DNA of 64,000 bases from Candidatus Zambryskibacteria bacterium RIFCSPHIGHO2_01_FULL_46_25 (GTDB lineage: Bacteria > Patescibacteriota > Minisyncoccia > Phycocordibacterales > Zambryskibacteraceae), in NCBI GenBank assembly GCA_001825155.1, contig MHVH01000005.1:3528-67527 (forward strand). The letters are read 5' to 3'. Every line of letters starts with the position of its first letter. The first letter of the stretch is position 1. Made by a program: the position numbers and the translations under genes. Below, one piece after another: positions 1,449-48,788 of the stretch. Below the pieces are notes generated by a model. The model did not search any database and had not been told where the DNA came from. It saw nothing but the letters and a program-made list of their open reading frames with translations.

Positions 1449-2009
1449 ATGAGTTCAGAAGTCAATATGTCCAAGTCGCTAGCTACATTTTTTCAAAAAG
1501 ACGTTTTTCCAAGCAAAAATGATAATTGGAAGGATCTTCTTTTTGAAGATCGGCTGACAGGAAAAGCTATTGTGTTTGATAATGAAAATAAAATAGCATT
1601 GGTTGGTACCAAAGTTAATTCTCTCTATCAACTTCCTGGCGGTGGAATAGATAGTAACGAATCTATTGAAGATGGTGTGATTAGAGAATGTTTGGAAGAG
1701 ATTGGGTGTGAAGTTACTCTTATAAAAAAGATTGGGGTGATTGATGATTATAGAAATAGAGATAAAAAACATTGCATTAACCACTGCTATGCAGCTAAAT
1801 TAGTTGGAGAAAAAGGCGCCCCCGCTCTTACAGAAGATGAGGCGAAAAATGGATTGCATGTAGTCTGGGTTTCTCTAGATGAAGCAGTCCAAATATTCGA
1901 TAAAGAAGTTTTACAACTGAAAAAGGGTGAAATACCTTTTTACAATACTGGTTACAATATTTTGCGAGATATATTCTTTCTTAAAGAGATGCAAAAGAAT
2001 ATTCAATGA
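1449..2009 (+). CDS. NUDIX hydrolase
   Basis: Nudix box GGIDSNESIEDGVIRECLEEIGC fits Gx5Ex7REUxEExGU. Lies in an AT-rich segment. Divergent from the histidine phosphatase gene. Confidence 0.8.
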   Translation: MSSEVNMSKSLATFFQKDVFPSKNDNWKDLLFEDRLTGKAIVFDNENKIALVGTKVNSLYQLPGGGIDSNESIEDGVIRECLEEIGCEVTLIKKIGVIDDYRNRDKKHCINHCYAAKLVGEKGAPALTEDEAKNGLHVVWVSLDEAVQIFDKEVLQLKKGEIPFYNTGYNILRDIFFLKEMQKNIQ

Positions 2010-2010
2010 A

Positions 2011-3033
2011 ATGACCAGGATCTTCCTTTTAACTGATTATCGAAGACAATTTTATTCATCAACAAAAAGTAGAGGGGGTGGAATAGACCTTATTCGATTG
2101 GCAGAATATTTTAAAAAATTAAATTTTGATTTAGTGGTGATGCCTTTTTCTGAGGTTGATCTACGAACACAAAATTATAAAAACGAATGGGTTTTATATC
2201 AATCCTCCGAAGATCCCAGTTTGTTTTATAGAAGTTATCTAGACGATATTGTCTTGGGACTATTCCTACAAGGGGCGAGGCTTATTCCTGACATCTATAA
2301 GTTTCGTGCCCACCACAATAAGCATTTTATGGAGATTCTACGAGATGTATCTGATATACCAGAAATAAAAAATATCAAGTCTGATCGCTACGGCACATAC
2401 GAAGATTATCTAAAGAATATAAATAAATTTAAAAACAATTCCTATGTATTGAAATCAAGTAATACATCAAAAAGTCGTGGAGTGTTTTTACTAAATAATA
2501 TAAAAGATAAATTAACTATACCAAGGAAAATATCTAACACTTTTTCTCTCAGAAATATTCAATACTATTTTGAAAGGTTAAGAACGGGTAAAAAACCTTT
2601 ATATATATCAAACAACCGAAAAAAATTCATTCTCCAGCCCTATATTGCCAGTCTTCAGGGGGATTATCGTGTTGTAGTGTATGGCGACAAGTTCTACGTT
2701 CTATATAGATCCAATAGAAAAAATGATTTTCGAGCTAGTGGAAGTATGATGTTTAACTATGAAATCGAATTGCCTCCTAACCTTTTAAATTTCGCCAAGA
2801 AAGTTTTTGATGGTTTTGATGTCCCATATATAGCGCTTGATATTGGTGTAAAAGATAACAATTTCTTTGTGTTTGAATTTCAATTTCTATCTTTTGGTCA
2901 ATACACACTTGAAAAATCAAAGTTCTTCTATCGACTTGAGGATAAGGATTGGATTAAGATATTTGAAGAGCCAGATCTTGAAAGAGAAATTTCTATATCT
3001 GTAATGAAGTTTATTAGTAAGCCAAAAAACTAA
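2011..3033 (+). CDS. ATP-grasp fold protein (RimK/D-Ala-D-Ala-ligase-like), function unknown
   Basis: ATG at 2011 directly after the NUDIX stop (ATGA overlap). C-terminal motifs (YRVVVYGDKFY, ALDIGVKDNNFFVFEFQ) resemble ATP-grasp carboxylate-amine ligases. AT-rich. Confidence 0.5.
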   Translation: MTRIFLLTDYRRQFYSSTKSRGGGIDLIRLAEYFKKLNFDLVVMPFSEVDLRTQNYKNEWVLYQSSEDPSLFYRSYLDDIVLGLFLQGARLIPDIYKFRAHHNKHFMEILRDVSDIPEIKNIKSDRYGTYEDYLKNINKFKNNSYVLKSSNTSKSRGVFLLNNIKDKLTIPRKISNTFSLRNIQYYFERLRTGKKPLYISNNRKKFILQPYIASLQGDYRVVVYGDKFYVLYRSNRKNDFRASGSMMFNYEIELPPNLLNFAKKVFDGFDVPYIALDIGVKDNNFFVFEFQFLSFGQYTLEKSKFFYRLEDKDWIKIFEEPDLEREISISVMKFISKPKN

Positions 3034-3037
3034 ATAT

Positions 3038-4771
3038 ATGTGCGGAATAGCTGGTTTTATAGATAAAAGTAATAAATATGATATTGCTGAGAGGGAAGAT
3101 CTTCTTCATCGAATGTTGGGCTTGATTGAGCATAGGGGAGGTGACTCTATGGGTATTAAAACTATAGGTTCGGTTACGATGGGTCATACCAGGTTATCAA
3201 TATTAGACGCAGATAAGCGAGCCTATCAGCCTATGGCAAGTGATAACACGGTGCTCTCTTTTAATGGTGAGATATATAATCACTCAAAACTTCGAAGTCA
3301 ATACTGTAAGAGTCAAAAAATAAGTTCTTACTCAGACACCTCAACACTTTTTGCTTTGTTGCAAACACTTTCGTTAAAGAAAGTACTGGCTCTAATTCAC
3401 GGTATGTATGCGTTTAGTTTCTTAGACATGAGAAACAAATCATTAAGCCTTATTTTAGATAAACTAGCAATCAAACCATTGTATTATGTAGACACTCCAG
3501 ATTTTTTTGCTTGGGCTTCAGAAATAAAAGCTTTCAAAGCAATTCCCGGTTTTAAGTTTAAGTTTCGTGATGATGGCTTGGAAGAATTTATGTGTTTTAG
3601 ATATATTGTTGGTGAAAAAACTTTATTTAAGAATATATACAAGATGCAAGCTGGTGAAATCTTAACTTTTTCGCTTAAGACAAATTTTTTTAACAAAAAA
3701 ATATATTACAAACTACAGAAATCAAAAAAACAAAGTGGATCATCCTTGAGCAGACTCTTAAAAGATAGTGTTTATAATCATCTGATGAGTGATATTCCAA
3801 CTGGAATCCAATTGAGTGGCGGGGTAGATTCTAGTCTGGTAGCTTATTTTGCCCAGAAGTTTTCTAAAAAACCACTTCATACATTTTCTATAGGTTTAAA
3901 AAACAATAAGTGGAATGAGTTTATATATTCTGATATGGTGGCGAAACTTTTGAAAACCAACCATCATAAAATAACTTTTTCAAAACGAGACTTTATTAGG
4001 TTGTTTTCAAAGCTCACCTATCATCTAGATGAGCCTATTGTTCATCCAAACACTATTCCTATGTATTTACTAGCAAAAGAAGCAAGAAAATACACAAAAG
4101 TTCTATTAACTGGTGAAGGGGCGGACGAAGTATTTTATGGGTACAACAGATATTTTCAAAAGCTTTTGAAATCAAGTAAAGACATCCTTATTTCCAATTC
4201 ATTTACTGACCCGAAGTTTGTCTCGTCTATCTTAAAAAAGTTTAACCCCGTTTTCTTGAAAAGACTAGCAATCATAAAAAATGTGGAAGGAGCAAGTATA
4301 GTCAATAGGGTGAGCTATTATGACGTTTATAGTTATTTACCACATGTCCTATTGAGGCAAGATAAGGCGGGAATGGTAGCGAATATAGAAAATAGGGTGC
4401 CTTTTCTTTATGATTCTGTTTGTGAGTACGGCTATAATTCAAAAGACAAAGTTGGAAAATATGGTGGTAAGAACTCAATTAAAAAGATCGCACTAAAATA
4501 TCTTCCTAAAGATTTAGTCTTAAGAAAGAAAATAGGTTTTGGCTTACCAATTTCCAACTGGCTGAAAGACAATAGTGGGTTTTTACCACACCTTTCTAAT
4601 TTAAAAAATCATCAAATAATTAAAAGGTATTTTATTAAAAGTGAGATTAATCAGCTTATTAATGAACATGTAGCAGAGGATAATGATCACTCAAGTATAC
4701 TGTTTACTCTCATTAGTTTGATGACATGGTATGACATTTTTATAAACACTTCCTTACCACATAAACCATAA
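3038..4771 (+). CDS. asnB: asparagine synthase (glutamine-hydrolysing), AsnB family, copy 1
   Basis: N-terminal MCGIAG (class II glutamine amidotransferase nucleophile Cys2). PP-loop SGGVDSS. 577 aa. AT-rich. Confidence 0.85.
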   Translation: MCGIAGFIDKSNKYDIAEREDLLHRMLGLIEHRGGDSMGIKTIGSVTMGHTRLSILDADKRAYQPMASDNTVLSFNGEIYNHSKLRSQYCKSQKISSYSDTSTLFALLQTLSLKKVLALIHGMYAFSFLDMRNKSLSLILDKLAIKPLYYVDTPDFFAWASEIKAFKAIPGFKFKFRDDGLEEFMCFRYIVGEKTLFKNIYKMQAGEILTFSLKTNFFNKKIYYKLQKSKKQSGSSLSRLLKDSVYNHLMSDIPTGIQLSGGVDSSLVAYFAQKFSKKPLHTFSIGLKNNKWNEFIYSDMVAKLLKTNHHKITFSKRDFIRLFSKLTYHLDEPIVHPNTIPMYLLAKEARKYTKVLLTGEGADEVFYGYNRYFQKLLKSSKDILISNSFTDPKFVSSILKKFNPVFLKRLAIIKNVEGASIVNRVSYYDVYSYLPHVLLRQDKAGMVANIENRVPFLYDSVCEYGYNSKDKVGKYGGKNSIKKIALKYLPKDLVLRKKIGFGLPISNWLKDNSGFLPHLSNLKNHQIIKRYFIKSEINQLINEHVAEDNDHSSILFTLISLMTWYDIFINTSLPHKP

Positions 4772-4821
4772 ATAGAGGGTTATTTTATTTCTTGTCATTA
4801 TGAGATACTCTTAATTTCATC

Positions 4822-5637
4822 ATGTCACTCAAAATAGGTATTGTCGGTCTCCCGAACGTTGGTAAATCCACGCTCTTCAACGCGCTCACCAAGCAGTCTG
4901 TGCCGGCGGAGAATTATCCTTTCTGCACCATTGATCCATCTGTTGGCATCGTGCCGGTGCCAGATGAGAGACTAGATAAACTCTCCGTTCTTTCGAAATC
5001 GAAGAAGACTATTCCGGCCGTGGTCGAGTTCGTCGACATCGCGGGCCTCGTGAGAGGCGCTTCGGAAGGGGAAGGTCTGGGCAACAAATTTCTCTCCCAC
5101 ATACGCGAAGTGGACGCCATTATTGAAGTGGTGCGAATTTTCGAAGACAAAGAAATAATCCACGTGCACGACAAGGTCGACCCGCTTTTCGATATCGAAA
5201 TCATCAATCTGGAGTTGAAAGCGGCGGGGATAGATAAACCGATTCTCTACGTTGTAAACACCAGCGAGGCTTCAGAGAACAGACGCGAGATGCTCGACAA
5301 GATTCCCGGGCCCTACATCGAGATAGATCCCATTTTCGGCACGGGCTTGGACAAACTTATCATCGAAGCATACAAGCTTCTCGACCTTATAACTTTTCTT
5401 ACGACTGGGGAGAAAGAAAGCAGAGCGTGGACGACGCATCGCGGGGCCACCGCGCCGGAAGCGGGCAAGTCTATCCACACCGATTTCAAAGACAAATTCA
5501 TCCGCGCCGAAGTCATACACTGGGATAAGCTTCTCGAAGCGGGCTCTTACGTTGCCGCCCGCGCCAAGGGCTGGGTCCGCATCGAAGGCAAAGAGTACAT
5601 CGTCCAAGATGGCGACGTCATGGAGTTTCTTATCTAG
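4822..5637 (+). CDS. ychF: Obg-family ribosome-binding ATPase YchF (compact form)
   Basis: G1 [16 protein letters not shown]3 motif, C-terminal TGS-like region (…[21 protein letters not shown]). 271 aa, shorter than the usual 360 or so. Confidence 0.8.
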
Positions 5638-5655
5638 CCGTCATATAATAGGCAT

Positions 5656-6210
5656 ATGAATACTTCAAATCGCATCGGGAAGTGGTCAGTCATTATCGGC
5701 ATTATGATTGTGCTTAACCTCTTCTTCAATTACGCTCTCTCGCTCGCTTACAAGAGCCCGGAGTACAACAATTTCTGTCCAAACGAGCAGGTTATCAACA
5801 TTCCCGATGATCAGAACGAGTGCGTGGCCCAGGGAGGCCAATGGACGGACAATGGCTACTACGGCAAACCTATGCCGGTCGGAGAAGTCGTTCCCATAGG
5901 TTATTGCGACCTCCAGTATACTTGCCGGCAAGAGTTTGAAGACGCGATGAAGAGCTACAACAGAAACATTTTCATTGTCTTGGTGGTTCTTGGAGCCGTG
6001 AGCGTCCTCGCAGGCAATTTCTTCGTTGGCAATGAGGTGATTGCCGGCGGCCTCTCGCTTGCCGGCGTGCTCTCTTTCCTCGTCGCCTCCGTACGCTACT
6101 GGAGCTCGGCCAATGACCTCATTCGCGTCATCATCCTCGCCATCGCCCTTGGACTCCTCTTCTGGATAGCGATTAAAAAATTCAACCAACGATCGACAAC
6201 CAACAACTAA
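5656..6210 (+). CDS. hypothetical membrane protein
   Basis: N-terminal and C-terminal hydrophobic helices. Competing minus-strand ORF 5686..6654 overlaps leuS and is judged spurious. Confidence 0.4.
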   Translation: MNTSNRIGKWSVIIGIMIVLNLFFNYALSLAYKSPEYNNFCPNEQVINIPDDQNECVAQGGQWTDNGYYGKPMPVGEVVPIGYCDLQYTCRQEFEDAMKSYNRNIFIVLVVLGAVSVLAGNFFVGNEVIAGGLSLAGVLSFLVASVRYWSSANDLIRVIILAIALGLLFWIAIKKFNQRSTTNN

Positions 6211-42227: not shown

Positions 42228-42677
42228 AATCCTCCCCCATAAATCCCTCCAACCCCCCTTTATCAAGGGAGGTGAATCATGAAATACAATTTTATTCCAT
42301 ATGATAAAAATCTGGTACTCCGGGCCAGAGAATTAAGAAATAATCAAACGGAAGCAGAGAAATACTTTTGGACCAATGTTCTTAAAAGTAAAAAATTCAA
42401 GACTTTCATATTTTTGAGACAAAAACCGGTTGGAAATTTCATTGTCGATTTCTACTGCTCGCGTTTGTTACTCGGCATAGAAATTGACGGCCATATCCAT
42501 GACAAGAATAGGGATAAAGAAAGAGATAATATATTAAAAGAGAAATTCGGGATTACGGTCCTTAGGTATAGAAACGAAGATGTTATGGATAATCCTGAAA
42601 AAATTGTGAAAGACCTATTGCGACAAATGAAAGGTTGATCCCTCCCTTGATAAAGGGAGGGCAGGGAGGGATTGTGT
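42228..42677. mobile_element. about 450-bp element with imperfect terminal inverted repeats (AATCC(C)TCCC… / …GGGAGGGATTGTGT) carrying a DUF559/Vsr-like nuclease gene
   Basis: Left end cctcccccataaatccctccaacccccctttatcaagggagg. Right end ccctcccttgataaagggagggcagggagggattgtgt, the reverse complement of the left end. A miniature derivative lies at 12587..12667. Confidence 0.6.
42279..42638 (+). CDS. DUF559-type endonuclease-domain protein (Vsr/PD-(D/E)xK-like)
   Basis: …RQKPVGNFIVDFYCSRLLLGIEIDGHIHD… signature of the DUF559/very-short-patch-repair-like fold. 119 aa. AT-rich. Confidence 0.7.
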   Translation: MKYNFIPYDKNLVLRARELRNNQTEAEKYFWTNVLKSKKFKTFIFLRQKPVGNFIVDFYCSRLLLGIEIDGHIHDKNRDKERDNILKEKFGITVLRYRNEDVMDNPEKIVKDLLRQMKG

Positions 42678-45483: not shown

Positions 45484-45629
45484 CTTATTATGCTGAAGCC
45501 TTTTAAAATAATTTTATTCTTTTTTCTTGCAGTCATATATGTTCCGGCGTATTTGCTTATGCAGTTCACTTTCTCATGGTGGTCTGGACTTCTGGGAGGG
45601 GATTGAAGCGAATACTTGGAGCTTCAATC

Positions 45630-45692
45630 GGCCGGAAGCTGACGAGCTGAGGCGGGGTCGCGGAAATTTCTAGCAAGAAATTATCCGTGACT
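45630..45692. repeat. left copy of the roughly 65-bp direct repeat bracketing the GC-rich pyrE/pyrF islet
   Basis: ggccggaagctgacgagctgaggcggggtcgcggAAATTTCTagcaAGAAATTatccgtgact. Right copy at 47642..47708. Confidence 0.6.
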
Positions 45693-45710
45693 TGATTTTA
45701 ATAATAGAAA

Positions 45711-45738
45711 GGGCCGGCAGCGCATGCGCTGCCGGCCC
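45711..45738 (-). terminator. GC-rich hairpin downstream of the pyrE-like gene (terminator or cassette-boundary element)
   Basis: GGGCCGGCAGCGCATGCGCTGCCGGCCC. Near-identical element at 46551..46575. Confidence 0.6.
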
Positions 45739-45757
45739 TCGTTCGTTCGAAACCGCA

Positions 45758-46474
45758 CTACACGGAGAACTGGTGCGCCTTGATCTCCTCCTCGACGGCG
45801 GCCACTGCTGTCTTGGACCACATGCCCAACTCGCCGTACGCGTACGTGATGTCGAGGAGGTTGTAGACGACCACGATCTTCTGGAAGCCTGCCGCAGTCA
45901 GGCGTGGCACGGCACCCTGCTGGCGATCGATCCAGATGAGGCATGGCATCTCGTGCCCGGGGTAGCCGTCTTCGATACCTCGCTCCGCTGCGACGACTTT
46001 CGAACGTCCGTCGGTCACGACGTTATCGATCCACCAGTACTGATGGCGGGCCAGGTCCGGCCGACCGTTGATCCAGACTTTTTTGTGCGCGCCGTGCTGC
46101 TTCGGCTGCTCGCGCATCACTCGGTGCCCGATCGGCTGCGCCGTCCACGCCATCTCTTTCAGGAGGCTGAGGCTGCTAAGGGAGGCCGCCTGGGCGAGGG
46201 TGTTGCCGGCCACCGGCACGCCGATGAGACATTGCTGGCGGCTCTCATCGAGGTCGGTGTTGTCGTAGACGACCCGCGCCAGCTTCAGGCCGATGAGGCT
46301 CGCCAGCTGAGGGTTGTCGGTGAGATCTTCGCGACCGAAGACGTAGACGTGCGACATGATGCCGGATGCGAGCTTGAACGGCTCATCGCTGCGTCGCACG
46401 AATCCGCACTTACTCATCATGGCGAGGATGTCAAGATCCTCATTGGTATACTTAGCGCCGGATGGGACTTGCAT
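45758..46474 (-). CDS. pyrE: orotate phosphoribosyltransferase-like type I PRTase
   Basis: FKLASGIMSHVYVF (compare FTLKSGRKSPYFFN of OPRT), LIGVPVAGNTLA, and PRPP-binding VWIDNVVTDGRS. SD GGAGA upstream. GC-rich. Confidence 0.6.
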   Translation of the reverse strand: MQVPSGAKYTNEDLDILAMMSKCGFVRRSDEPFKLASGIMSHVYVFGREDLTDNPQLASLIGLKLARVVYDNTDLDESRQQCLIGVPVAGNTLAQAASLSSLSLLKEMAWTAQPIGHRVMREQPKQHGAHKKVWINGRPDLARHQYWWIDNVVTDGRSKVVAAERGIEDGYPGHEMPCLIWIDRQQGAVPRLTAAGFQKIVVVYNLLDITYAYGELGMWSKTAVAAVEEEIKAHQFSV

Positions 46475-46550
46475 GACAGATCTCCTCTCGAAACAGGATT
46501 AAACGATACGATCTAGGGCTAGACTATCAGATAAGGAAGGGAAGTCAAAA

Positions 46551-46575
46551 GGGCCGACAGCTACGCTGCCGGCCC
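46551..46575 (-). terminator. GC-rich hairpin downstream of the pyrF-like gene (second copy)
   Basis: GGGCCGACAGCTACGCTGCCGGCCC followed by ctcgattgttgttc, paralleling ctcgttcgttcg after copy 1. Confidence 0.6.
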
Positions 46576-46597
46576 TCGATTGTTGTTCTTGCTCGTT

Positions 46598-47503
46598 CTA
46601 CGCTGCCACGAGATAGTAGGGGATGTAGAGGTTGATCTCGTCGCGCGTCTTCTTCGCCGCAGCTCCCGGATCATCCGCGAAGATGATGCCGGAAGACGAG
46701 TTGATGGCGATGGAGCCTGCACCCATGTAGGCGGCCTTGACGGTTTCCTCGACGAAGCCGCTCTGTGTGCCAATGCCGGGGATGAGGAACCACAACTGGT
46801 TGCCGACGATTTCACGCCCCTTGACGAGATGTCGCGAGTAGATCGGTTCCGATGTGTACGGGCTCTTGTGTGCGGCGCCCATGACCACGCCGGCGTTCTC
46901 GAGAACGCCAAACTCGGTCGACCAGTCGAGGATGTCCCGAACCATCGCTTCCCAGACTATGCGCACGTCGGCAAGCAGTCGGTCTTGAACTCGCCACGCC
47001 GCAGGATTGCTGGTGCGGCCGAGGCCGACCAGCGCCCGGCCGGGGTACTTCGGGTCCACAAGGGCCTTGAGCGTGTCGGAGCCCATGTAACCGTTGTAGT
47101 TCATCCCGTCGACGCCGTCGAGAAGGAAGTGAGCGTCACGGTACTGACGCTGGGTGCGGTCGATGTCACCGCGCTTGCAGTCGAGGAAGACGGGGATGTC
47201 CGGGTACTTCTCGTGGATGTAGGCGACGATGGAGCGGAGTGCTTCCGCTCCTCCCACCAGTGCCTCCCAGTGGGCGCGCTGAGGCTTGAACATGCTGGCG
47301 TAGAGAGCGGTCGCATCGACGACACCCTTCATCCAGTAGAGCACCACGGTGCCTTGCAACTCCTCCGTGATGTCTTCCCAGGTACGGCAGCCGAAGTGGT
47401 CCAGAACTGTCTGGGGCACCTTCTCGAGAAGTGGGTCGAGGCCGACGCAGAGGAGGCTGTTGACGGCGATTTGACGAGCGGTCAGTGCGGCACGGAAGTT
47501 CAT
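46598..47503 (-). CDS. pyrF: orotidine-5-phosphate decarboxylase, long (type 2) form
   Basis: LCVGLDP and FLDCKRGDIDRT (DxKxxDIxxT) OMPDC signatures. Start set at ATG 47503 with AAGGAG 8 nt upstream. GC-rich. Confidence 0.65.
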   Translation of the reverse strand: MNFRAALTARQIAVNSLLCVGLDPLLEKVPQTVLDHFGCRTWEDITEELQGTVVLYWMKGVVDATALYASMFKPQRAHWEALVGGAEALRSIVAYIHEKYPDIPVFLDCKRGDIDRTQRQYRDAHFLLDGVDGMNYNGYMGSDTLKALVDPKYPGRALVGLGRTSNPAAWRVQDRLLADVRIVWEAMVRDILDWSTEFGVLENAGVVMGAAHKSPYTSEPIYSRHLVKGREIVGNQLWFLIPGIGTQSGFVEETVKAAYMGAGSIAINSSSGIIFADDPGAAAKKTRDEINLYIPYYLVAA

Positions 47504-47641
47504 ATCTAGGCTCCTTATTGATTGTGTGCGTTTCCTGCCCGCTACATTAGCAGAATGGACGAAAATAGGGAAGTGTGGTGCTTTTCGAAAAATGGGCATA
47601 TTCCCCTACCGCTGCGGTGGGGGAGAGGAGCGAGTGCTCGC

Positions 47642-47708
47642 AGCTCCTCTCGGCCGGAACTCACGCCGGTGAGTGAGGCGGGGTCGCGCAAAAACTCAGC
47701 AGAGTTTT
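47642..47708. repeat. right copy of the roughly 65-bp direct repeat bracketing the GC-rich islet
   Basis: ggccggaactcacgccggtgagtgaggcggggtcgcgcAAAAACTCagcaGAGTTTTatgcgtgact. The internal hairpin differs from the left copy by compensatory changes. Confidence 0.6.
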
Positions 47709-47825
47709 ATGCGTGACTAGTGCAAAAGAGCGCATATGGTGTAATTCGCCAAGCTTTATCCAAAAGCCTTCTTATCCCCATAAGTTCGTTTTACATATAT
47801 TGTGCGAACCTATACAATATAGAAT

Positions 47826-48788
47826 ATGAGCCGTCCCCTGCCAATAAAAGACTACATCCTCCCCTTCCTCGATTACTGCGAGATTGAAAAAGGTTTGTCG
47901 AACAATACGCAGAAAAATTATAAGCAGTATCTCCTACTCTTCATTCGCTGGCTCGAAAAAATTAGCGAATCGGATTTAAAGCCCGAGGACCTTACCCCCA
48001 AGCATATCTGGGATTATCGGCTCTATCTGGCTCGCGGCTATAAGGCTCCAGGAGGCTCGTTTCTCGGTAAGAAGAGCCAAAACTATTACCTCATAGCGGT
48101 TAGAAGCCTTTTAAACTATTTTGCCGAACATGATATCGTTTCGCTCCCCTCTTCGAAAATAAAATTGGCGAAGCAGAAATCTGAGGAAACAATTTCTTTT
48201 CTCGACACGAGCGACGTGGAGAAAATGCTCAAGATTCCGGACGTCTCAACTTTGGGCGGTTTGCGCGACAGGGCTATAATGGAACTCTTTTTCTCATCCG
48301 GAATGCGCATCTCCGAGCTTGTGGCTTTAAACGCCGATCAACTCTCCTTTCTCTCCGACAAGAAGACTGACAAGACCTATGAGCTCTCAATCATAGGCAA
48401 AGGCAAACACATGAGAACCATCTTCATCTCTCCTCGCGCGGCCGGGTGGCTAAGACAGTATCTTAATAAGCGTCACGACGTGCATAAGCCACTATTCCTT
48501 AACTCGCGACCGGATGATGAGGACAACAATCGCCTCTCTCCCCGCTCGATACAGAAAATGATTTCGCGTTGCGCCATGCTCGCCGGACTTTCTAAAAAAG
48601 TTACGCCTCACACTCTGCGTCATAGCTATGCGACTGATCTACTCTCCCACGGAGCGGACCTCCGAAGCGTCCAGGAGCTTTTGGGTCACAAGAATGTGGC
48701 CACCACTCAGATATATACCCACGTTACCAACAAACAACTCCGCGATATCCACGAGAAGTTCCATGGTGGACAAGATATGAAGAAATAA
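47826..48788 (+). CDS. tyrosine site-specific recombinase, XerC/XerD-like
   Basis: …LRHSYATDLLSHGADLRSVQELLGHKNVATTQIYTHV… with the R…HxxR…Y catalytic signature. Confidence 0.85.
   Translation: MSRPLPIKDYILPFLDYCEIEKGLSNNTQKNYKQYLLLFIRWLEKISESDLKPEDLTPKHIWDYRLYLARGYKAPGGSFLGKKSQNYYLIAVRSLLNYFAEHDIVSLPSSKIKLAKQKSEETISFLDTSDVEKMLKIPDVSTLGGLRDRAIMELFFSSGMRISELVALNADQLSFLSDKKTDKTYELSIIGKGKHMRTIFISPRAAGWLRQYLNKRHDVHKPLFLNSRPDDEDNNRLSPRSIQKMISRCAMLAGLSKKVTPHTLRHSYATDLLSHGADLRSVQELLGHKNVATTQIYTHVTNKQLRDIHEKFHGGQDMKK

Follow-up and report, generated by a model that had tools for sequence, protein, structure and literature searches.

The described systems that come closest to the element reported here are integron attC sites, group I introns, IS200/IS605 insertion sequences, integrative elements of tRNA genes, and "theta" and other small ribozymes related to that of hepatitis delta virus (HDV). 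An attC site is a single imperfect hairpin with two to three extrahelical bases and an unpaired central spacer, conserved in structure far above sequence and folded on one specific strand. Group I introns pair with their target through an internal guide sequence (P1/P10), and IS200/IS605 ends combine strand-specific subterminal hairpins with a guide of 4 nucleotides (nt). Integrative elements of the tRNA 3' half recombine through attP and attB and leave the gene intact, while theta and small ribozymes lie 3' of tRNAs on the same strand. Here, we present the analysis of two repeats in a stretch of 64,000 nt from Candidatus Zambryskibacteria bacterium RIFCSPHIGHO2_01_FULL_46_25, which is called the window in its full length. 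The repeats belong to a family of structured, non-coding elements of about 90 nt, which share single traits with each of these systems and appear to represent small mobile elements, structured and equipped with a guide, of a kind not described before.

Fold and covariation of the repeats and their relatives

The original prediction, made from the letters of the window, had placed direct repeats of about 65 bp at 45630-45692 and 47642-47708. The repeats are real and the left position was correct, but the right copy lies 10 nt further on, at 47652-47718, and the copies are longer than claimed. Repeat search and alignments extended the similarity about 30 nt further 5' (75% between 45598-45637 and 47620-47659, 73% between 45648-45692 and 47674-47718), giving copies of about 90 nt each at 45601-45691 (left) and 47623-47717 (right). 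On the + strand, both copies adopt the same three-helix fold with -43.1 (left) and -54.4 (right) kcal/mol, corresponding to z = -4.7 and -4.8; none of 200 shuffles of either copy folded as well. The parts of the two copies are as follows.

45601..45629, + strand: left P1a, with 5' strand 45601-45609 (GATTGAAGC), loop 45610-45620 (GAATACTTGGA) and 3' guide strand 45621-45629 (GCTTCAATC)
45630..45691, + strand: left core, with P2a 45631-45633/45651-45653, a G bulge and tandem GA, and P2b 45637-45640/45645-45648
45657-45671/45676-45691, + strand: P3 of the left core, with loop AGCA 45672-45675, bulged A 45683 and G.U pair 45660/45688
45692..45695, + strand: TTGA after the left core, repeating the TTGA at 45603-45606; a possible 4-nt target repeat that may be chance
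47623..47651, + strand: right P1a, with 5' strand 47623-47631 (GAGAGGAGC), loop 47632-47642 and guide strand 47643-47651 (GCTCCTCTC)
47652..47717, + strand: right core, with P2a 47653-47655/47677-47679 and P2b 47659-47664/47669-47674
47683-47697/47702-47717, + strand: P3 of the right core, with loop AGCA 47698-47701 and bulged A 47709

The hairpin with the constant loop AGCA, which had been predicted to carry compensatory base changes, is P3, one of the three helices, and such changes were found in all three. At least nine base pairs are changed on both sides between the two copies and not one is broken. Double changes keep the pairing of P1a (GATTGAAGC/GCTTCAATC on the left versus GAGAGGAGC/GCTCCTCTC on the right), and pairing is likewise kept in P2b (AGCT/AGCT versus ACTCAC/GTGAGT), in the lower stem of P3 with one changed pair (..CGG/CCG.. 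versus ..CGC/GCG..) and in its upper stem with five. The unpaired segments GGCCGGAA and GAGGCGGGG, the loop AGCA and the bulged A are identical. Due to the G.T pair in the lower stem of P3, folding without mismatches occurs on the + strand only. The left P1a is the minimum-energy fold and forms nine consecutive pairs with the left flank; its 5' strand contains the TGA stop codon (45604-45606) of a small open reading frame (ORF), and the loop sequence GAAUACUUGGA recurs in copies from other species (L009, L035 and L040, where L-numbers denote loci fetched from relatives and pattern matches).

Genomes representing one species each were scanned with the pattern GGCCGGA-N(6-30)-AGGCGGGGTCGC-N(20-40)-GTGAC, which fixes 24 core positions, and at least 120 DNA stretches matched. 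Taxa among the matches listed are Saccharibacteria, Paceibacteria (Kaiser-, Parcu-, Minisyncoccia), Levyi- and Berkelbacteria, WS2 and Elusimicrobiota, with Patescibacteria making up the main part; all but about five of these matches come from Patescibacteria, Elusimicrobiota, WS2 or unclassified metagenome-assembled genomes (MAGs). Five were rejected as chance matches (Dactylosporangium, Cenarchaeum, an Alphaproteobacteria MAG and two Actinomycetota MAGs), with 24 bits or fewer, or nothing, in the covariance model described below.

This model, R1, was built from 23 ungapped cores of 62 nt, in which 98.4% of the cells are paired and 14 of 22 pairs show changes on both sides. Applied to the fetched loci it gave 123 and a further 30 matches, two of them at chance level, and thus 151 convincing copies including diverged and tandem ones. 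In the 118 distinct sequences of the first match set, 97.2% of the cells are paired and both-sided change occurs in 20 of 22 pairs; these values were reached by none of 500 shuffles, and sliding the partners by one to three columns left 30-44% paired. As R1 contains sequences from other species, its matches to the left copy (84.8 bits, E 3.2e-18) and the right copy (70.3 bits, E 8.8e-15) place both in the family; the 64-kb window gave no further match to R1. The original prediction had argued for selection on structure instead of a plain duplicate, and the covariation across 118 sequences bears this out: the further copies preserve structure, the opposite of the random differences it had named as counter-evidence.

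That the two repeats are a simple local duplication, or two intergenic hairpins alike by chance, would agree with the presence of only two copies in the window. This explanation is vanishingly improbable and is refuted by the scores of 70-85 bits from a model of other species, by 151 convincing homologues in over a hundred genomes, and by the fact that all differences between the copies preserve pairing.

Across the family, the junction nucleotides of the core are highly conserved and the helices variable. The G.U pair of P3 is GU in 114 and AU in 3 of the 118 distinct sequences and GC in none, which identifies the + strand as the folded one, either as RNA or as single-stranded DNA.

The element is missing from Rfam 15 and was not found in the searched open literature. 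Neither the window, searched at the gathering score and at E <= 10, nor 18 loci searched at the gathering score gave an Rfam 15 match to the element, the only matches being tRNAs and, elsewhere, chance-level ones; none of its known ribozyme or riboswitch models matches the element. Literature searches by core sequence string and by topic yielded nothing relevant, the nearest paper dealing with group I introns in the anticodon loop of Patescibacteria tRNA genes. The same pattern found 0 matches in IMG/VR viral contigs, hence there is no evidence of a phage origin. ARAGORN detected no tRNA, tmRNA or tRNA-like gene at the copies, and the T-arm-like look of many of them is explained by the repeated tRNA end together with the guide, both described below. 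Readings of the fold by eye as HDV-like, hammerhead, twister or K-turn motif were rejected, as the pairings or motifs needed are absent (the tandem G-A stands with a bulge of only 1 nt). A kissing contact of CUGC, in the loop of an accessory hairpin further upstream, with GCAG in the loops of the core was also dismissed, there being no association (6/28 versus 33/96).

Target sites and the guide in front of the core

Copies of the element usually occupy the 3' ends of genes, and the order of parts is fixed: intact gene end, spacer of 0-100 nt (a cargo of 2.4 kb in L030), guide, 2 nt, core, and repeated gene end. A tRNA on the same strand lies within 150 nt upstream in 49 of 130 copies, and in 35 copies at least 12 nt of the 3' end of the adjacent tRNA are repeated directly after GUGAC; a direct repeat of the sequence after GUGAC was found upstream in 47 copies. 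At tRNA sites, C56 of the T-loop (..GGTT|CGAATCC..) is usually the first nucleotide to be repeated, which puts the joint at position 55/56, and the repeat extends to the end of the tRNA plus 1-6 nt. Besides tRNAs, the targets are the final codons of rplL in five genomes, a topA-like gene in its C-terminal zinc-ribbon region (L016) and an ORF at its stop codon (L106). The left copy of the window likewise lies on a stop codon, that of a conserved 38-aa ORF. The repeated gene end measures from 4 nt to more than 100 nt and usually reaches the end of the gene, and other copies have longer repeats at the position that corresponds to TTGA 45692-45695 of the left copy. At rplL, the two end copies differ almost exclusively by synonymous changes plus one conservative I->V exchange (L074), and both end copies of the topA-like gene keep an ORF, so that these repeats look more like a substitute gene end borne by the element than like a fresh target duplication. 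In L012, L021 and L062, the 5' part of the tRNA up to the D-loop is repeated instead.

All copies are co-oriented with the upstream gene and, at rplL and tRNA sites, lie 5' of the native terminator. Element units of 90-200 nt contain no ORF. Several loci (L046, L076, L093, L124, L045, L126 and L113) contain copies in head-to-tail tandem, some of them identical, and up to four copies occur within 2.2 kb in Elusimicrobiaceae. Assembly gaps of Ns adjoin copies in L001 and L008, which suggests that the repeats break assemblies. The cargo of L030 (5080-7700) is located between a tRNA-Ala and the guide and core; it encodes a membrane protein of 183 aa and a DnaJ-type zinc-finger protein and no recombinase, and the repeat after this core, longer than 100 nt, spans the tRNA terminator and a promoter-like TTGACT..TATAAT.

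No conserved protein accompanies the element. All-against-all clustering of the ORFs within 3 kb of the 120 listed loci yielded scattered housekeeping genes and no recurrent neighbour, and in this range no recombinase gene is enriched and neither a reverse transcriptase nor a transposase is present.

These sites bear on the fairly unlikely explanation that the element is a cis-acting structured RNA of benefit to the host (a ribozyme, a ligand or protein sensor, or a module for 3'-end processing or stability), with the gene-end repeats as by-products of recombinational spread. Conserved junction nucleotides between variable helices and an invariant G.U pair are typical of aptamers and ribozymes, the co-orientation with the upstream gene before its native terminator would suit such a function, and the two connectivities of P1 (a hairpin, or closure by the 3' flank) resemble permutations known from some ribozymes. 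The gene-end repeat, however, is far longer than P1 needs, occurrence in close relatives is patchy, copies may stand in tandem and their sites vary, and the neighbouring genes are unrelated and without a common function. Besides the lack of a match to any known ribozyme or riboswitch model, the right copy of the window has no evident promoter.

The position of a copy is reflected in the sequence directly 5' of its core. There, 7-11 nt (the guide) are complementary to the start of the repeat and form helix P1. Of 28 testable copies, 27 also have pairing between the 2 nt that separate the guide from GGCCGG and the 2 nt to the left of the upstream repeat. This 2-nt rule holds in 11 of 12 copies once the case of TT:AA at tRNAs is set aside, the sole exception being a tandem copy; examples are TG:CA at tRNA-Cys, GA:TC at rplL, the topA-like gene and the left copy of the window, and GT:AC in L113 and (by eye) L040. 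Taken together, guide and 2-nt pairing mean that positions -2 to about +9 of the uninterrupted target have their complement in the element; the 3' end of the element and the target are always joined 2 bp from the core-proximal end of the guide:target helix. Two apparent topologies of P1 follow from the length of the spacer: with a short one, the guide forms a local hairpin with the upstream copy of the target, and with a long one it can close around the core with the downstream copy. Both copies in the window are of the local-hairpin type. In about half of all copies, P1 reaches 6 or more pairs with the right flank, or 8 or more with the left one. At the orthologous site near xer, guide and flank have changed together: GAGAGG/CCTCTC in the window corresponds to GAGTGG/CCACTC in L008.

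Like the internal guide sequence of a group I intron, this guide lies by a catalytic-looking core, pairs across the joint and holds the joint at a fixed position of the helix; as in group I reverse splicing, the 3' end of the element is attached to the downstream target, and a G.U pair is conserved. In contrast to group I introns, the element has only about 90 nt, no P3-P9 core and no match to RF00028, its G.U pair is part of P3 and not of the joint, and it leaves, as a rule, a repeated gene end without interrupting the gene. Group II introns have six domains, with the catalytic hairpin in domain V, and usually encode a reverse transcriptase. The element recalls them superficially, in that GUGAG stands at the 5' end of some copies and that the A located 8 nt before the 3' end is bulged, but it has neither an Rfam match nor a recurrent ORF.

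A single locus looks like an interrupted gene: in L043 (2706-2900), a copy apparently divides a tRNA-Trp within its D-arm, the anticodon and T arms coming after it, and a run of 20 Ns occupies the critical point. It might be taken, together with the GUGAG(A) at the start and ..AC at the end of many copies, the bulged A 8 nt before the 3' end and the resemblance of guide:flank pairing to an internal guide sequence, as a sign of a small intron-like element that is removed from RNA and hence tolerated inside a tRNA gene. In-silico excision with ARAGORN restored tRNAs at 30 sites, but in the inspected subset these gains are explained by the flanking repeat or by a complete tRNA upstream. L043 is masked by Ns exactly at the point needed, the duplication of gene ends that avoids breakage would be unnecessary for an intron, and no group I or group II model matches an element of about 90 nt; we therefore regard this explanation as very unlikely.

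With the ends of IS200/IS605 elements and their miniatures, the element shares a strand-specific subterminal hairpin with an unpaired base, target pairing by a short internal guide, the lack of terminal inverted repeats and small non-autonomous copies. It differs by a guide of 9-13 nt instead of 4, by a variable and often long target repeat where IS200/IS605 has none, by one three-helix core at one end in place of a hairpin at each, by diverse targets in place of insertion 3' of a fixed target of 4-5 nt, and by the absence of TnpA and TnpB around the 120 listed loci. Integrative elements of the tRNA 3' half (attP/attB) resemble it in the joint in the T-loop, the repeated tRNA 3' end on the far side, the intact gene and, in one case, a cargo of 2.4 kb; unlike them, the element may measure no more than about 75-90 nt besides the repeat, encodes no integrase, has a covarying folded core and targets many tRNAs as well as protein genes, each matched by its own guide. 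The HDV-like theta and other small ribozymes 3' of tRNAs are also small same-strand structured RNAs with permuted P1 connectivities, but the element matches no Rfam ribozyme, has a spacer and repeated tRNA end before the core, and uses the ends of protein genes, too.

Possible mode of insertion and its implications

The balance of the evidence leans towards the two repeats being independent, diverged insertions of a small, non-coding, multi-copy and probably mobile element family of Patescibacteria and Elusimicrobiota. Its unit is a core of 60-90 nt, folded on the + strand into a three-way junction, with a guide of 7-11 nt and a 2-nt linker in front. Within the core, P2 is formed by GCC/GGC with a G bulge, tandem G-A and a variable hairpin, followed by a GG linker, and P3 by GUCGC../..GUGAC with the essentially invariant G.U pair and the bulged A. 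A single-stranded form, be it RNA or single-stranded DNA, would be the active one, and base pairing would pick the target; the 3' end of the element (..GUGAC) is always joined to the target exactly 2 bp inside the core-proximal end of the guide:target helix. As a copy of the target from the joint onward is kept upstream, the host gene (tRNA, rplL, topA-like gene or small ORF) stays intact. In the window, the left insertion would have hit the stop codon of the 38-aa ORF and the right one a piece of resident DNA that precedes the xer promoter. The pyrE/pyrF gene pair between them would represent separate cargo at a variable hot spot.

Two sub-models fit the data. The element may circulate with a substitute gene end and recombine at the joint of core and target, or its 3' end may be joined first at the point defined by the guide, with the variable 5' junction made secondarily. 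The nearly synonymous differences between repeats favour a gene end borne by the element.

Several observations weigh against insertion of a mobile element family. The scan pattern itself fixed 24 core positions, and conservation there is partly a matter of ascertainment. About half of the copies have no clear P1 to their flanks under the simple criterion given above. No single known insertion chemistry accounts for a target repeat whose length varies between 4 nt and more than 100 nt, and the nearly synonymous repeat differences fit a substitute gene end better than fresh target duplication. No pair of empty and filled sites was found in near-identical strains, all strains of the species carrying both copies, and no enzyme was found, the surroundings of the 120 listed loci being free of reverse transcriptases and transposases. 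Finally, no + strand promoter was detected upstream of the right copy, which may thus not be transcribed.

A bolder version of the mobile-element explanation, which we hold to be quite improbable, is that of a protein-free, guide-bearing mobile RNA or RNA-templated element, whose three-way-junction core would set its own 3' end to attack a target strand held by a guide of 8-13 nt, always 2 bp from the core. If true, this would be a miniature self-inserting, ribozyme-like element for tRNA T-loops and gene 3' ends, retargetable by a change of guide, and thereby a new class of natural programmable RNA-guided insertion systems in the smallest bacterial genomes.

Should the family prove to be what the data suggest, it would rank among the most widespread conserved non-coding structures in Patescibacteria: the exact 24-base pattern occurs in over a hundred species representatives, and some genomes hold several copies per 8 kb. 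The simple insertion rule (a complement from -2 to about +9 and a fixed joint) makes target choice by pairing directly testable. The element would explain why the host genomes contain partly duplicated tRNA genes, tandem repeats and assembly gaps, as well as part of the variability of gene order around tRNA genes and near xer, and possibly the movement of DNA in tiny genomes with almost no transposases. In genome annotation, a model of the element would prevent copies from being overlooked or taken for tRNA fragments.

The pyr islet and the xer region of the window

The two copies lie around an islet of two genes, in a region that extends from the small ORF to a recombinase gene.

45490..45606, + strand: small ORF, 38 aa, membrane-like/hydrophobic (MLKPFKIILFFFLAVIYVPAYLLMQFTFSWWSGLLGGD), conserved in L007, L008 and L009
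45758..47506, - strand: islet with an orotate phosphoribosyltransferase-like (pyrE-like) gene, 45758-46474, and a gene for orotidine-5'-phosphate decarboxylase subfamily 2 (pyrF), 46598-47506
47603..47623, + strand: resident hairpin CCCCTACC..GGTGGGGG, then GGGGAGAGG, upstream of the right copy
47783..47810, + strand: dif-like 11-6-11 site of 28 bp, AGTTCGTTTTA-CATATA-TTGTGCGAACC, invariant in four relatives (window, L007, L008 and L009)
47826-48788, + strand: xer, encoding a Xer-type recombinase (228 bits to XerC; 107 bits, partial and below the cut-off, to integron integrase)

The islet has a GC content of about 0.60 as compared with about 0.50 in its surroundings. According to the original prediction, it is bracketed by the repeats; whether copies always lie at the boundaries of islands or cassettes had been named as a check. 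The bracketing holds only loosely: the left copy adjoins the terminator of the pyrE-like gene, but the right copy lies about 115 nt from pyrF in resident DNA. The resident hairpin and GGGGAGAGG, which fall within these 115 nt, also precede xer in L007, L008 and L009 irrespective of the cargo, including relatives without the islet, which places the right copy in resident DNA and not at the edge of the islet. The check came out negative, copies usually being single and at gene 3' ends. Homologues of the pyrE-like gene elsewhere in Patescibacteria normally belong to a cluster ftsA-ftsZ-pyrD-pyrF-pyrE without copies of the element; the islet is hence a relocated gene pair of which the element is not a part.

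The hot spot extends from the small ORF, which is a called gene in L008 only (4901-5020), to the xer promoter, and its content varies among relatives. In L007, the closest of them, it contains a non-orthologous pyrF-pyrE pair on the opposite strand and no core. This pair (4315-5657, + strand) consists of an orotidine monophosphate decarboxylase of 235 aa and a canonical Pribosyltran protein, whereas the window (45700-47510, - strand) has the subfamily-2 pyrF and a phosphoribosyltransferase of the Patescibacteria type. The pyrF/pyrE function seems to have been acquired twice at one hot spot. L008 contains a distant phosphoribosyltransferase-like gene and one copy of the element beside xer, and in L009 the hot spot is empty and a copy occupies a different intergenic space; presence and position of the element vary among close relatives whose Xer proteins are 80-89% identical. 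The left copy could not be established as a clean insertion relative to L008, since the DNA past the ORF aligns unconvincingly and the gene of L008 is only 25% identical to the pyrE-like protein of the window. A supposed strain polymorphism, the apparent loss of the left copy in L001, proved wrong, the copy being present and followed by an N gap. The Xer protein of the window is also encoded on GCA_001824055.1 and related assemblies.

The dif-like site ends 15 nt before the start codon of xer and overlaps a promoter-like TTTACA-17-TACAAT. From its sequence and position it may be a dif site beside its own single recombinase gene, comparable to XerS/difSL. A segment over the GG linker and the 5' strand of P3 (45657-45667, GGGTCGCGGAA; 47682-47692, GGGTCGCGCAA) is similar to the right arm of this site in reverse complement (47800-47810, GGTTCGCACAA). 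In the right copy, 9 of 11 positions agree by eye, a marginal result with p roughly 0.05 after the positions tried.

The element might be a folded single-stranded DNA site for a tyrosine recombinase, either attC-like or in the manner of the CTX-phage attP with Xer, its core serving as a protein scaffold, P1 mimicking the duplex target, strand exchange requiring homology to the target, and pyrE/pyrF being a cassette captured between two sites of this kind. Like attC, the element is conserved in structure far above sequence, folds strand-specifically and has an extrahelical base in a long stem, and in the window it stands beside gene-sized cargo whose coding strand is opposite to the folded strand, as in integron cassettes. 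In the window and in L008, the distance between a copy and the dif-like site and Xer gene is about 70-100 nt, P3 has the 9/11 match to the dif-like arm, one element (L030) bears the cargo of 2.4 kb, and the diverged yet intact gene-end repeats recall the substitute gene ends carried by attP sites.

Against this, the element forms a three-way junction and not a single bulged hairpin, its core sequence is strongly conserved, and only one A is bulged, in P3. No R or L boxes (RYYYAAC/GTTRRRY) and no GTT crossover were seen on reading both copies and 123 unique cores, which was no formal scan; the conserved ends are GGCCGGA and GUGAC. The recombinase is of the XerC/D type and not an IntI, and no integron integrase and no cassette array are present. 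One core per element is the norm instead of two, mostly single at the 3' ends of tRNAs and other genes with the target matched by a guide complement of about 8-13 nt, and the targets are too diverse for sequence-specific recognition by a protein. With no recombinase gene enriched at the listed loci, the right copy in resident DNA and the pyr pair free of copies elsewhere, we judge such a site quite unlikely, and a role of Xer is a lead only, given by its proximity to copies in two genomes and the P3/dif-arm match. The proposal of a folded recombination site or structured RNA pointed in the right general direction; its specific attC and islet-boundary parts found no support.

Further observations concern the wider window. 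Near-identical GC-rich terminator palindromes, AAAGGGCCGGCAGCG..CGCTGCCGGCCCTCG, end both islet genes (45708-45747 and 46548-46584), and the one at 45708-45747 has weak Rfam matches to the terminators of proteobacterial sRNAs. A gene for a DUF559 protein (Vsr-like endonuclease fold) lies at 42279-42638 between a murG-like gene and gltX in the window and in L007, and is absent there in L008 and L009. At 2001-5000 of the window, the GC content is 0.32-0.35 as compared with about 0.50 elsewhere, and this part may be foreign DNA.

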